Shown in pieces: positions 11,527-17,292 of a stretch of 64,000 nucleotides of DNA. The stretch lies in NCBI RefSeq assembly GCF_057098645.1, contig NZ_CM169472.1; one strand, given 5' to 3'. The stretch's first letter is position 1; the number at the start of each line of letters is the position of its first letter. The translations under genes were made by a program, and so were the position numbers. The notes under the pieces are model-generated. The model was not told the origin of the DNA. It saw nothing but the letters and a program-made list of their open reading frames with translations, and searched no databases.

Positions 11527-11927
11527 ACTTTAACTCTACATTGATATAACATTAGCCAAATATTCAACAGTGTATGCGACCAAACACCAACATGTCGCAT
11601 ACATATACAATTTGAATATTTAATTATATTTACTTAATGTATTTCTATAAAAGCAAATTACAAACTCACAACAAAAAACCTCATAACACATTAACAATCA
11701 ATTCTTTTCATCTTTATAAATTCTCATATCAGGCTTGCACCCGATAAACCGACGAAAACTATTTAAAACCCATCGAGTGAAGTAATCTCTAAAACCAAAG
11801 AAATACCAAGTGAAAATATTCACGATAAAATGCCCGGTCAAAGCCCCTCCTGTACCGCATGCAAGAACAGTAAAAAATCAGATGTTGAACCGCCCCGGGT
11901 TTCCTGGAGAGTGTTTTATCTGTGAAC

Positions 11928-12818
11928 TCAGGCTGCCAGATCATCGTTTCCGATGGAAGCATAATAAGCTTTTTCTGCTTCTGCCGGAGGAGTATGGCCC
12001 AGCCTTTCCAGCAATCGTCGATTGTTATACCAGTCCACCCACGTGAGTGTGGCCAGTTCCACTTCTGCACGGTTTTTCCAGCTCTTACGGTGTATTACCT
12101 CCGCTTTGTAAAGACCATTGATGCTCTCCGCCATCGCGTTGTCATACGAGTCGCCTGTACTTCCTGTTGATGCCAGTAATCCGGCTTCCTTAAGCCGCTG
12201 TGTGTAGGCCAGCGATACATACTGAGAACCTTTATCACTGTGATGGACCGTGCCGGACGGTCGACGGGCCCATAACGCCTGCTCCAGTGCATCCAGCACG
12301 AATGTCGTCTCCATGGACGATGAGACCCGCCACCCCACAATGTATCCGGCAAACACATCAATGATGAACGCCACATAGACGAAGCCCTGCCATGTGCTGA
12401 CGTAAGTAAAATCAGCCACCCACAGCTGGTCAGGTCGTTCTGCCACGAACTGACGGTTTACGCGGTCGCCTGCGGCAACGGCTTTCCGGCTGATGGTCGT
12501 ACGGACCTTTTTACCCCGGAGAACACCGGCAAGTCCCATAACCGCCATGAGACGTGCCACAGTGCATCTGGCCACTCTGATACCTTCCCGTAACAACTGA
12601 CGCCAGACTTTACGCACACCGTATACCTTGTGATTTTCATCGTATACGCGCTGTATCTCTTTCTTCAGCCAGTCATCGCGCTGCGCACGGGCACTGCGTT
12701 TATCCGGATGATGTCGCTGTTGCTGACAGTGGTAATACGTTGACGGGGCAATATGCAGTTCGCTGCATAGCGGTCCGACCCCGTACTGCTCACGCAGCTT
12801 ATCCAGCAGTGGCATCAT
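11928..12818 (-). CDS. IS629 transposase OrfB
   Basis: 296-aa ORF, about 98% identical to copy 1 OrfB. Confidence 0.9.
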
Positions 12819-13141
12819 TTTTTCCAGAGGCGGTCGAACTCCGCCTTCGCAAAATAAGCGGAAGCCTGGCGAAGGATATCGTTACTGCGGCGCAGTTCAC
12901 GATTTTCACGCTCCAGCTCTTTCAGACGCTGACGTTCAGCGGTGGTGAGCCCTCCATCACCGCCCCCGGTATCCCGCTCATGCTGGCGAACCCAGACACG
13001 CAGAGTCTCCGGCGTACAGCCAATCTTTGGAGCAATGGAACAAATTGTCGCCCATTGTGAGTCATATTCGCCCTGACTTTCCAGAACCATACGGACTGCC
13101 CGTTGACGGACTTCAGGGGAAAAACGAGTATTTTTAGTCAT
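12815..13141 (-). CDS. IS629 transposase OrfA
   Basis: 108-aa ORF, two substitutions relative to copy 1. Confidence 0.9.
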
Positions 13142-13192
13142 CCTGTTTACCTCTTTCTCAGGAAGTTTAGTCTCCAGGATTCCCGGGGCGGT

Positions 13193-16100
13193 TCACTCGC
13201 GAATACTGTTTAGCTCAGCATCAAATACCAACGGTAATGTTGCAGCCATATTGAGTACGGCTGCCGTAGAAGGCGTGATGCGTTTCTCCGGAACGGGTGT
13301 CGGCGTTGGATCGGGAGTCGGGTCTGGTTTCGGATCCGGTTTTGGGTCTGGTTTTGGATCCGGCTTCGGATTTGGGTTGGGATTTGGGTTGGGATCCGGG
13401 TTGGGTTTGACATCATTGGTCAGGTTCCAGTTGCTGTTGCCGTCGCTTTTCAGGACATACTCATAGGTCCCAAGATCAACGAAACCGCCGGTATTGCCCA
13501 GCGTAAACGAAGCATCCCCTCCCCCTGTTTTCACCAGCGTCATCGCGTCGTCAGACTGTGGGCTGACGCCGGTATCCTGAACAAAGATTTTAAAATTACC
13601 AGTGGCGTTGTTGTTGACGACCAGTTGATCGCCCCGGGAGCCTGCAACGTTGGTATGCTGGTAGAAATTACCGCTACCGGAAAGTTCATTAGTTGTCAGC
13701 GTATTGTAGATACCGTTAGTTGTGGCAGGCGCTGCTGTTTGTGCTGATAAATAAACATTACCGTCGTTAAGTAGCAAACTGTTTACTCTATACTCGCAGT
13801 TGCTGGTGCCTGCACAGGAATTATTGCTGTTAAGCCAGACACTGCCCCGGCTGGCAGCCGTCAGGTCGGCAAGCGTTGTATCGACGCCATTTCCCAGAGT
13901 CAATGTCGCGCTATCGGTAATCCGGACCGCCCCTTCGAGTTTAACTGGCGTAACATTATCCCGTGGCGTCATTAACGACAGGCTTCCTGTCGCGCCACTG
14001 ACCGATGCATCCGCCAGCGTACCTGCGTAGACGATTGCCGTCCCGCCAGCGACCTGGAGATCTTCTGCCCGGGCCAGAGGCTGAAACTCATCTTTTGACC
14101 GCCCAAGGGTATATTGCCCACCAGAGTTAACCTTTGTGGCGGAGTCCTGACCCAGGTTTTGCATTGCCCCCCCCTTGCCAACCGTGGAGTCGCGAGCTTC
14201 GGTACCTGCTAATACCAATAAATTACCGCCATTTTCCAGCAACATATTGGTCGCTAAATTGCCGGAAATGGAAAAAGTGCCGTACTGGTGAGTACCGCTG
14301 ATTTCAATACCGTTAGCCGTGCTCGTCTGGAGAGCGGCACCGCTGTTCTGGACGATATCTGTCGCTTTGCCATTATCGTTGACTGTCAGCGTACCGCCTT
14401 CATTGATCTTTGTTTTTATTGCCTCTCCGTTAGCTGAAACTGTTTGTATTCCGCCGTCGTTAATTGTTGTCTCATTCGCCACACCCTCGACAATTTGTTC
14501 ACCGCCAGTGAGCGTCGTGCCTGTCGCAGTGGCTTTTGTTTTGACGATCTCCCGTCCGCCCGTATTGACCTGTGTTTTGTCAGAAGAGGTGTCTGACTCC
14601 ACGGTTAACACGCCGCCATTTGCCAGCAGGATATTGTTCGCCGCACCCTGCTCGATGCTGAACGCGACGCCATCCGCGCGTGTTCCTGTGACCCGCGTCG
14701 CCCTGGTAGTTGCAACCAAAGCGCCCTGGCTACTCTGCTGTATCCCCGTTGCGCTGCCTTTCTCCCGCACATCGAGTGTGCCGCCGTCATTAAGCACCGA
14801 GTTTTCAGCCAGACCGCCCTCATTAACTACCTGTGAACCCCCATTAATAATGGAACCTTCCGCTGTCCCGTTTGCCATAATTTGTTGTAGGCCAGAGACG
14901 ATATCGGTATTGATTGCCTTACCATAATTCTGAACGGTTTGCGTACCGCCATTGATGTGCGTTTTATCTGTTGACCCACCATCAACAATTTGTTCACCAC
15001 TTTCGATATTTGCCTCAGTGGCTAATCCATATACCGTTTGCTTGCCACCTTTGATATTTGCTTTATCAGAAGTGGCACTGGCATATATTGTTTGGGTGCC
15101 AGCACTATTGAGTACAGTGCCAACATCTTTTCCATAAACATCCATTTTGCCGTTGGCATTAATAATCGTATCAACTGCCCGGGAACCAGTGACGACTGTT
15201 AATGAGCCAGCATTTTCCAGCACTACATTTTTAGCTTCTGAATTCCTGATGTAGAAAGCATCACCATAACTGTTGGTTCCTTCGATAAGTGTTCCGGAGG
15301 TCGTGGAAGCAATTAATGCGCCGCCGGATTGTTGCTCAACATGCTTAGCCTCACCACCGTCCTGAACCTCCAGAACGCCGCCATTATTAAGTCTGGTGCT
15401 ATCTGTTTTAGCCTCCTTCTGGACAATCAGCTTACCGCCAGCATCAATGGTAGTATTTTTCGCCGAGGTTTTAGCCACTACAGTCAGTTCGCCGGTATTT
15501 TCCAGCACAACATAATTAGCCTCCCCTCCGGTAATAGTGAAGTGAGAGAGCTTGTTGTATCCTTCGATATCAGTCCCTGCACCCGTGTTGGCAACTAAAG
15601 CACTGCCCGTCTCCTGGTTAACCCCATGTGCAATACCGCCGGTATAGACAATCAGCGAGCCTCCGGCGCTAATATTGCTGCCAATTGCCGTACCATCTTT
15701 CTCAACAACCTGCCGGCTCCCGGAGGATATAATTGTTGTGTCAGCTTTCCCGCCGCTTTTGATATTTTGCGTTCCGCTGTTGATATTGGTGCCTGTGGCT
15801 ATGCCATAATTATTAATATTCTGTGTGCCACCATTAATTATGGTATTTGTCGCGTTTCCGGCAACATCCATAACCCCGCCATTATCTATTCGGGTCGCAT
15901 CAGCTTTAGCATTGGTTAAAACTGACATTGTTCCTTTATCTTTGATAATCGTCTTGTTTGCCGAACCATATGCGTTTATGTCTAAATGACCACCGTTTTC
16001 CAGCAACACATTGTCTGCCACGTGATTGTGGATGGAGAATGCACCTTCACTATTCGTACCGTTCACCGTCGTACCGTTAGTGTTTGTTTTTAAAATTGCA

Positions 16101-16963
16101 CCATCGTGCTGGGTAACATTTGTTGCCGTACCACCACTAACATCAAGCACGCCACCGGAATAAACTTCAATAACATCCGAGGTGCTGGTGTTATCAACAA
16201 TTTGCGTGCCACCAGAATAGATCTGCGTATTTTTTGCCGTTGACTTACTATTCAGAGACTGAGTTCCGCCTTCAATCGTCGTGTCCAGCGCACGGCTCTC
16301 ATATACTCTTTGCTCACCGCCATTTTTAATGGTTGTTGTTTCTACTGTGCTCTGTTCAACATACTGTCGACCACCATTTATGGTTGTGTTCGTTGCCAGA
16401 CTTCCTTGCGTGATGTCCTGAGAGCCAGACTTATTTATCGTTGTACTGTCGACATGCCCCTGAGTTGTTACTCGTTGGCTGCCACCATCAATGATTGTTC
16501 CATTTGCAGTCCCCCCCTCTATGCGTGAAGTACCGCCCTTAATTGTCGTGTCATTGCTGGTACCACCTTTATGAACATATTGATTGCCACTTTCGATTAT
16601 CGTGCCAGTAGAAATTCCTCCGTACTCAATTGACTGTCTGCCTCCATTAATGGTTGTATTATTAGCTTGCCCGTTAATATCGGCATGGATTGATACTAGT
16701 TGCTCGCCACCAGTTTCAATAATACTACTATTAGATATCCCACCATAGACCTCCTGCCGGCCATGGTTGATAATATGAGTGTTATTTGTTGTACCTCGTT
16801 CATCTACTTTTTGGACACCATCTACAGTCTCATCGTTTACCACACCAATAACATTAGTAGTAAAGGCCGCCATCCCGGGCGGGGCATATATCAAGGCAGA
16901 TATCAATAAGGAAAGTACTGAGCGGCGACAATAATGGGGACTGGTCCTGTTCATAAATTTCAT
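13193..16963 (-). pseudogene. Autotransporter adhesin passenger domain (YpjA/AIDA-like), C-terminal beta-barrel translocator missing at the IS629 junction
   Basis: ORF track 13193..17083; extended signal peptide MKFMNRTSPHYCRRSVLSLLISALIYAPPGMA; long Gly/Thr/Asn-rich imperfect beta-helix repeats; Pro-Asn/Asp/Lys linker (PNPDPNPNPNPNPKPDPKPDPKPDP); the frame then ends inside the IS629 terminus with no beta-barrel domain. Confidence 0.7.
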
Positions 16964-17292
16964 CCTCTGAAAAGTGAATACTGAGTAGCGTTTAAGCGAC
17001 CTTAGCTCTGCTGCAACATCAGCCCACAGGCACCAGACCAGGGGATTCATCCTGAAGAGACAGCGCAAGTGTATTGTGTTCACCGCTCATCAAAGACATC
17101 ATGATGAAATGATGATATTCCGCATAAGAATGAGGCATTTTTTAAACGCAGTGCGCTGAAGTGTGATTGGATAAAAAAGTCAATCTATTCAGGAAACACG
17201 GGCGTATTCTTTTCTTTCGACAATGAGGCCGTTGGCAAAATAAAATGATTTACATAATCGTTTCTGATGAATATCTTCTGCTCACATAAAAA

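Follow-up and report, generated by a model that had tools for sequence, protein, structure and literature searches.

An IS629-group insertion sequence without target-site duplication at a prophage/ypjA deletion junction in an O145:H28-type Escherichia coli chromosome

Background

IS629 is the most abundant insertion sequence (IS) of enterohaemorrhagic Escherichia coli (EHEC), where it resides mostly in prophages, and copies of IS629 and IS1203 without target-site duplication are said to have been noticed in EHEC genomes by Ooka and co-workers in 2009. Here we describe a copy of this kind in a stretch of 64,000 nucleotides of contig NZ_CM169472.1 (hereafter, the window), which derives from an O145:H28-type chromosome. 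The element, an IS629/IS1203-group IS termed copy 2, joins a lambdoid prophage remnant to an autotransporter gene, ypjA/ehaD, that has lost its 3′ part. With a probability of about 0.6, we read copy 2 as a strain-private, derived stage of serial IS629-type erosion at the prophage/ypjA boundary, reached by a two-step mechanism.

In four O157:H7 genomes, a matching duplication of 3–4 bp was present at 21 of 47 IS629 sites (Rump et al. 2011, PMC3271280); 62% of the IS629 copies were located in prophages, subtypes differed by 4–5%, and no sequence-specific target was reported (PMC3271280). IS629 is also known to cause gene inactivation and genomic deletions (PMC9943667). Since most of the O157:H7 sites are devoid of a matching duplication, a duplication-less copy at a deletion junction is to be expected. 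Copy 2 resembles the IS629/IS1203 elements of EHEC in its length of 1310 bp, its TG...CA ends, its imperfect terminal repeats of about 25 bp, the orfA/orfB frameshift at an A-run, the preference for prophages, and the existence of subtypes that diverge by a few percent. It differs from them in that its host is an O145:H28-type chromosome, in its inversion relative to the IS of related genomes, and in a pair of junctions that occurs in no complete genome searched.

Excision of IS629 associated with the IS-excision enhancer (IEE) leads to deletions that extend from a few bp to tens of kb from the IS end (Kusumoto et al. 2011, as cited in PMC9943667; bioRxiv 10.1101/2023.06.07.543989), and IS-flanking deletions have been attributed to an attack of one IS end on some site that is not the opposite end (bioRxiv 10.1101/2023.06.07.543989). 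The O145:H28 strains RM13514 and RM13516 carry iee (PMC5567499); the gene is absent from the 64-kb window. The IEE-associated process has in common with our locus that deletions start at IS ends, that the microhomology of 2–4 bp at its joins resembles the TTC join of strain Z1323HEC0422 (see below), and that the lineage carries iee. It differs in that the IS of the window is retained and inverted, with a microhomology of 0–1 bp, as against 2–6 nt at IEE joints.

For IS911, IS2, IS3 and IS30, adjacent deletions and inversions reportedly arise from active junctions of the right and left terminal inverted repeats (IRR and IRL) or from tandem dimers, as described by the Chandler and Olasz laboratories. 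Intramolecular transposition of this type resembles what is seen at our locus: one end is fixed while the other flank changes, duplications are missing, and an inverted second copy would give a junction of IRL with a ypjA remnant of 3759 bp. It differs in that neither a dimer nor an inverted-pair intermediate was observed at this locus. According to work of Roux and colleagues in 2005 and of Wells and colleagues in 2008, YpjA/EhaD reportedly is an adhesin of K-12 and EHEC strains and belongs to the AIDA-I-type (type Va) autotransporters. A literature search found no paper on truncation of ypjA in O145:H28.

Results and discussion

Copy 2 and its junctions

The features of copy 2 and of the adjoining gene are as follows.

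11886–13195, minus strand: copy 2, IS629/IS1203-group IS3-family element of 1310 bp, at the prophage/ypjA deletion junction
12815–13141, minus strand: orfA of copy 2, 108 aa, intact; matches NF033516 positions 1–86
11928–12818, minus strand: orfB of copy 2, 296 aa, DDE catalytic part, intact; NF033516 score 315.7 bits (cut-off 160)
11883–11885: left flank TGT of copy 2, prophage DNA between the 590-aa open reading frame (ORF) and the ninE position; unlike the right flank
13196–13198: right flank CTC of copy 2, ypjA DNA; unlike the left flank
13196–16954, minus strand: ypjA/ehaD remnant of 1253 native codons, comprising signal peptide, AIDA repeats, pertactin domain, Pro-rich linker and the start of the helical linker
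16955–17083, minus strand: in-frame upstream extension of the mechanical ORF, with GTG at 17083; probably untranslated

Copy 2 has its IRR at the left (TGAACCGCCCCGGGTTTCC...) and its IRL at the right; the two repeats share 14 of 14 terminal bases and 23 of the first 25, and the element ends in 5′-TG...CA-3′. A slippery run of six adenines (A6) is located at IS position 373, within the overlap of orfA and orfB, and the Prokaryotic Genome Annotation Pipeline (PGAP) annotates the identical element of relatives as an IS3 family transposase with programmed frameshift. Copy 2 is intact and presumably still active. Its whole sequence is 100% identical to that of the locus IS in strains 95-3192 and RM13516, which has the opposite orientation there, and to that of another copy in a second prophage of RM13516. 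The name IS629/IS1203 is based on 97.5% identity between copy 2 and a further element of the window, copy 1, and on RefSeq labels. In queries with 100–200 bp of IS end and flank, elements of 95–98% identity were labelled "IS3-like element IS1203 family transposase" in RefSeq; the label of the identical copy-2 variant is merely "IS3 family transposase".

A preliminary description of the window had reported unlike flanks for copy 2, and on re-inspection no duplication was found either, TGT standing to the left and CTC to the right. The left flank is intergenic, between the 590-aa gene and the ninE position of relatives, where the native sequence reads ...CAGATGT/TTTCATAAAT (the slash marks the point of the junction); the native ypjA sequence at the right flank is ...TGTTCAACCG/CTCGCGAATA (...CAACCG/CTCGCG...). 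Both junctions are exactly at the IS termini, with an ambiguity of 1 nt on the left and 0 nt on the right. A target-site duplication of 3–4 bp thus flanks copy 1 and not copy 2 (TGT versus CTC); such a duplication is a trait of simple insertions, not of the element itself.

The trinucleotide GAG (read as CTC on the window's plus strand) adjoins IRL at three of the seven junctions examined, namely those of copy 1, copy 2 and the IS of RM13514 (L004 14384–14386), which may reflect a target preference or chance. The tetranucleotide CTCG is found at the IRL junction of the window and, reverse-complemented, at that of RM13514; chance would produce this in about 1/256 per comparison, and a GAG/CTC target preference is one possible reason for it. 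As a target of IS911-like insertion, a pseudo-terminal repeat that ypjA carries to the immediate left of the new junction (TCAACCGC versus TGAACCGC) was considered and rejected, since only 9/13 positions match and its location is offset.

Truncation of ypjA/ehaD

The gene abutting copy 2 was previously called YpjA-like. The family is correct; by identity and synteny, the gene is ypjA/ehaD itself. The window ORF shows 96.7% nucleotide identity to ypjA of K-12/DH5alpha over 4.2 kb, and its neighbours are those found in K-12, i.e. a small hypothetical gene, a pin-like recombinase remnant, ypjCB, a tRNA-Ile gene, an amylase-like gene and the gab operon. Besides the Pro-rich linker, it shares with YpjA/EhaD the AIDA repeats (PF16168, nine stretches, E = 9.5e-146) and the pertactin domain (PF03212, E = 2.2e-44); the autotransporter beta-domain PF03797 was not detected by Pfam in the window ORF. 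The N-terminus MNRTSPHYCRRSVLSLLISALIYAPPGMAA is signal-like, as read from the translation with no predictor score.

The extent of the autotransporter frame up to position 17083, as first reported, is that of the ORF starting with GTG; the annotated start in relatives is an ATG that corresponds to window position 16954 (upper end of ypjA, L001 17563–21759). On the minus strand the frame ends at 13193 with a TGA stop codon, which the terminal TCA of the IS (13193–13195) supplies in reverse complement. The frame therefore does end within the IS terminus, as originally stated, although not immediately after the Pro-rich linker: a further 37 residues follow, and the end falls in the helical linker.

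Intact YpjA of RM13516 has 1528 aa and PF03797 at residues 1267–1506; its gene is 4587 bp long (4581 bp in K-12). The protein of the window matches it over residues 1–1253, except for Q1099L, and then stops. Lost are the last 275 codons (828 nt), which encode the helical linker and the entire beta-barrel domain. BLASTN and TBLASTN searches of the 64-kb window with the missing 828 nt and 275 aa gave no significant match, and together with the Pfam result this bears out the earlier observation that beta-barrel coding sequence is present on neither side of copy 2.

PGAP marks the longer ypjA remnants of relatives as pseudogenes lacking the C-terminus, and ypjA of the window is a pseudogene as well. 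Since signal peptide and passenger are kept and the translocator is absent, YpjA cannot function as an autotransporter and would not be displayed at the cell surface; judging from type Va autotransporter biology, periplasmic export is the most that would be expected.

Alleles of the prophage/ypjA boundary in finished genomes

In finished genomes, the IS at the prophage/ypjA boundary occurs in at least eight states, listed here from the prophage side to the ypjA side, with the orientation of the IS as (+) or (−) and the remaining length of ypjA in bp.

State 1, RM13516: replication gene O′, IS(+), spacer of 449 bp, ypjA intact; IS and copy 2 share 100% identity
State 2, RM13514 and some ten further genomes: methyltransferase, IS(+), ypjA-4197
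State 3, 95-3192, RM9872, 16003, 12E115 and 99-3311: P22AR-type antirepressor remnant, IS(+), ypjA-4197
State 4, RM12367-C1: tail fibre, IS(+), ypjA-4197
State 5, Z1323HEC0422/0399: methyltransferase, no IS, ypjA; TTC microhomology join
State 6, C325: lom, no IS, ypjA; from annotation alone
State 7, RM9154-C1: antirepressor′, IS(−), ypjA-4002; IS at L005 7771–9080
State 8, window: 590-aa gene plus 360 bp, IS(−), ypjA-3759

At least 21 complete genomes, the majority with an O145 label, share the junction IS(+)/GGTTCCAGTTACC, at which ypjA is cut at 4197 bp; this junction is therefore ancestral to most of the lineage. Its ypjA side is constant and its prophage-side flank varies (methyltransferase, P22AR antirepressor, tail fibre); a fixed ypjA junction combined with a varying prophage flank is the classical signature of repeated IS-adjacent deletions. 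An intact ypjA was found in RM13516 and RM12761, which are the exceptions among the O145:H28 genomes examined. The IS-less join of Z1323HEC0422 reads CCATTC/CAGTTACC, with TTC as a 3-nt microhomology.

Three segments of RM13514, 2,633 bp in total, are missing from the window: 886 bp of prophage DNA with ninE and the methyltransferase gene, an IS(+) of 1311 bp, and a 436-bp part of ypjA. Compared with RM13516, the window has 5,710 bp fewer, of which 4,400 bp are unique DNA and the remainder is one IS; the join coincides exactly with copy 2. This comparison with an intact homologue, which the preliminary description had proposed, defines the deleted segment and supports its suggestion that an adjacent deletion mediated by IS629, or a recombination between IS copies, removed the translocator domain and neighbouring DNA. 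The orientation of copy 2 is opposite to that of the IS(+) in the relatives, and IRL, not IRR, abuts ypjA. Neither junction of the window was found in 5,426 complete E. coli genomes or, as junction 32-mers, in a metagenome collection, and the right junction, which was the one scanned there, was absent as a 32-mer from species-representative genomes. The allele of the window thus appears to be strain-private and new, and the first truncation of ypjA predates this strain.

The IS of RM9154-C1 differs from copy 2 by a single internal substitution and, at IRR positions 15–16 (L005 7785–7786), by AA in place of TT. As AA is the sequence of IRL at these positions, the terminal repeat is chimeric, which suggests recombination between IRL and IRR within an inverted IS pair. 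The IS of RM13514 (L004 14387–15697), which is annotated as frameshifted, has the same ends as copy 2 and differs from it at 25 sites, including a 1-bp insertion, all of them in alignment columns 424–1080; it is thus a mosaic, and the pattern indicates gene conversion with another IS629 subtype. A left flank AGATGT seemingly shared between the window and the IS of RM9154-C1, for which a BLAST alignment ran 6 bp into the flank, was discarded as an artefact, since direct reading gave AGTTGC versus AGATGT.

The second IS of RM13516 that is identical to copy 2 lies in a paralogous prophage at 0.8 Mb (L007 9907–11216), inside replication gene O and in (−) orientation. Its flanks are unlike (GGC / CTA) and gene O has lost its middle part; this IS marks another duplication-less deletion junction. 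An exchange with this IS(−) as the source of the window allele was rejected: recombination inside the IS cannot change the end that abuts ypjA, and the two ISs are direct repeats in RM13516, so that recombination between them would delete 2.5 Mb.

In lambdoid prophages of O157:H7, O111:H8 and other strains, for example O157:H7 strain 7.1_Anguil (NZ_CP076232.1, 3857779–3857973), IS1203/IS629 elements have repeatedly inserted around the antirepressor and lysozyme genes, at sites no more than a few hundred bp apart, which suggests a regional insertion hot spot.

Copy 1 and its relation to copy 2

The second IS of the window and the DNA between the two copies comprise the following features.

917–2226, minus strand: copy 1, IS629/IS1203-group IS3-family element of 1310 bp, of a different subtype from copy 2
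914–916 (left) and 2227–2229 (right): target-site duplication CTC of copy 1, from reading of the flanks
2227–11885: lambdoid prophage segment of 9,659 bp between the IS copies, with the endolysin 5′ part, holin, a 617-aa esterase-like gene, Q antiterminator, phosphatase, ninG, HNH and the 590-aa ORF

Copy 1 had been taken for a simple insertion because of its CTC/CTC flanks. Z1323HEC0422 has the empty site, in which CTC occurs once (...GGTCAGTGGCACTCTGATGTTTTT... in L003). This shows that copy 1 arose by simple insertion and that its matching flanks are no 1/64 coincidence. The two copies have the same orientation, with orfA and orfB intact on the minus strand of each and matching the NCBIfam IS3 transposase model NF033516. 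Their sequences were already known to differ at several positions; alignment gave 33 substitutions and no indels. The DNA bracketed by the direct-oriented copies, previously put at about 9.7 kb, measures 9,659 bp. Copy 1 is a private, later, simple insertion that had no part in the ypjA deletion.

The endolysin (lysozyme) gene of the prophage is split by copy 1 into ORFs 663–916 and 2227–2509 (minus strand); it is intact in Z1323HEC0422 (L003 3564–4097). Since the endolysin gene is split and the early/replication region is absent, the prophage is doubly defective.

Formation of the window allele

The comparisons support a deletion in more than one step, in which copy 1 was not involved; adjacent deletion and recombination between two transient direct copies may both account for it. 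Because IRL now faces ypjA, and homologous recombination inside an IS cannot swap its ends, the junction IRL/CTCGCG must be the product of a transposase-type strand transfer. The comparison yields a series in which RM13516 represents stage 0, stage 1 has ypjA cut at 4197 bp beside IS(+), and the window is further derived. In the reading that we prefer, transposase would first join IRL to a new target (CTC) in ypjA, 436 bp inside the remnant and in inverted orientation, either by local re-insertion of a copy-out circle or by intramolecular, inversion-type transposition from an active IRR-IRL junction. In a second step, a deletion ending exactly at the IRR of the new copy would remove the old IS(+) and the 436-bp spacer together with ninE and the methyltransferase gene; it might proceed by "sloppy" strand transfer from the IS end or adjacent deletion, possibly helped by IEE, or by terminal-repeat recombination of the inverted pair. 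The end of the RM9154-C1 element could be explained by a crossover of the IRL of the old IS(+) with the IRR of the new IS(−), if it took place within the TCCTGGAGA block. The unmodified IRR of the window fits a crossover in the first 14, identical bases, but is uninformative in this respect. The most economical reading is that the IS re-inserted locally in inverted orientation and that the old copy and the spacer were lost afterwards; the route is one that we infer.

A number of points weigh against it. A genome with IS(+) and IS(−) around the 436-bp spacer was not found, and the precursor junctions (left flank of the window next to IRL, and antirepressor next to IRL with IS(+)) were not contiguous in any O145 genome. 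The sole single-piece match in the precursor search was a nearby IS1203 insertion in an O157:H7 strain, with 96.5% identity, which is taken to reflect the insertion hot spot. As diagnostic junction k-mers we list CAGATGT/TGAACCGCCCCGGGTT, CAGATGT/TGAACCGCCCCGGGAA, GGTTCA/CTCGCGAATAC and AACCGCTC/TGAACC; the second is tied to the inverted-pair model, and the last corresponds to the lost left copy of the CTC duplication. Moreover, the copy-2 variant is multi-copy in the lineage, and the inverted copy may have had a source other than the local IS. The IRR of the window is unmodified, and the chimeric-repeat argument is drawn from RM9154-C1 alone. The events may have numbered two or three, and more than one order is conceivable. 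We infer the role of IEE from the literature and not from the window, where a microhomology of 0–1 bp neither supports nor excludes it, and the evidence for the window itself is confined to a 64-kb stretch of the source genome.

The strongest competitor, which is possible although we think it rather unlikely, is homologous recombination between IS copies: two new IS(−) copies would have inserted at the TGT site of the prophage and the CTC site of ypjA, and a RecA-dependent deletion between them would have eliminated the intervening DNA, including the old IS(+). Every step of this scenario is a standard event, and a single copy with exact termini at both ends is what it would leave behind. Genomes of the lineage contain 89–124 IS elements, of which IS629 is the most prevalent (PMC3893438), the lysis and nin regions of prophages are recurrent IS629 targets (our searches; PMC3271280), and the mosaic IS of RM13514 shows that sequences are exchanged between copies, through homologous recombination or gene conversion. 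Three events are needed, however, neither intermediate insertion occurs in the 5,426 complete genomes, and the chimeric IRL/IRR end of RM9154-C1 is left unexplained. Copy 2 also lacks a mosaic pattern, being 100% identical to the locus copy of the relatives, which is a weak objection, since identical copies exist elsewhere. A recombination or deletion involving copies 1 and 2 of the window themselves, as the cause of the missing duplication, is suggested by their direct orientation, their 97.5% identity and the CTC to the right of copy 2, which is the same trinucleotide as the duplication of copy 1. This CTC is native ypjA sequence, however, and copy 1 retains both of its own flanks, with an empty site in a relative. 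The 9.66 kb in between are collinear with the relatives, and copy 2 equals their locus IS over 1310 bp and has none of the 33 variants of copy 1, i.e. it is no hybrid. Flanks, empty site, collinearity and variants together refute this explanation, to which we assign a very small probability.

An assembly artefact, in which two or three IS copies were collapsed and flanks of different copies were joined, would account for junctions that are unique to the window, and could be favoured by the many IS629 copies and by the difficulty of assembling an inverted pair around a short spacer. It is nevertheless improbable, because two full IS copies of distinct subtypes lie within 64 kb of otherwise perfectly collinear DNA (99.96% identity to 95-3192 over 50.8 kb), as is typical of a finished or long-read assembly, and because an analogous inverted allele occurs in the independently finished RM9154-C1. 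Alternatively, the passenger-only ORF might be the native form of the gene, e.g. a secreted or two-partner variant, as its length of 1253 native codons and its intact signal peptide would allow. The chance of this is minute: K-12 and strains of this serotype have full-length homologues with a beta-domain, that of RM13516 differs from the window remnant at 1 of 1253 residues, the stop codon consists of IS sequence, and every shortened form is flagged as a pseudogene by PGAP. The intact RM13516 homologue with PF03797 refutes the idea.

Extending the preferred reading, we tentatively consider that an element of the IS629 lineage might "walk" into ypjA by repeated flip-and-delete cycles, each consuming a few hundred bp, a notion that is possible rather than probable. 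In each cycle, a local inverted re-insertion would produce an unstable inverted pair of 1.3-kb elements, to be resolved by recombination of the IRL of the old with the IRR of the new copy. If this were true, the O145:H28 locus would represent a natural time series, and the chimeric end of RM9154-C1 a molecular fossil. To our knowledge, such a walking route of a copy-out-paste-in IS has not been documented in natural isolates.

Biological meaning

The locus is an ordinary product of the IS-driven genome erosion that is well known in EHEC, and reveals no new kind of element or mechanism. Just three features are mildly unusual: the changed orientation of the IS, its progress into ypjA in steps, as seen in two independent alleles, and the RM9154-C1 chimeric repeat. 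YpjA/EhaD, a minor adhesin/biofilm autotransporter, is non-functional in this strain and in most of the O145:H28 genomes examined. The strain-specific junctions …CAGATGT/TGAACC… and …GGTTCA/CTCGCG… could serve as typing markers. The allelic series, with at least eight states, two of them with an inverted IS and one with a chimeric repeat, illustrates the erosion of prophages and adjacent genes by IS629-type, probably IEE-associated, events. The locus could help to test models of IS-adjacent deletion; its practical consequences are small.

Surrounding sequence

Positions 1–11885 of the window belong to the remnant of a lambdoid prophage and cover its lysis, Q and nin part. This remnant is integrated at ssrA and occupies the ssrA-ypjA interval of O145:H28-type genomes. 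The last intact gene to the left of copy 2 is the following.

9754–11526, plus strand: 590-aa hypothetical prophage gene (WP_001505174.1)

This ORF runs opposite to the direction of the surrounding nin genes and is conserved in several O145:H28 prophages. It gave no match in Pfam or PADLOC, and appears to be an uncharacterised prophage moron.

To the right of copy 2, positions 13196–64000 are collinear with the backbone of 95-3192 from ypjA to mltB. Between emrB and luxS, at about 50609–52425 on the plus strand, this region contains a gene pair coding for an RNA-ligase-family protein and an AAA ATPase; such a pair is not known to occur at this position of K-12. The frame of the AAA ATPase is broken in the window (ORFs 51313–51969 and 51994–52425), and an internal stop is annotated in 95-3192. 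At 55904–56806, four tandem tRNA-Arg genes and a tRNA-Ser gene, with internal repeats of 92–95% identity, represent a normal argQZYV-serV cluster.

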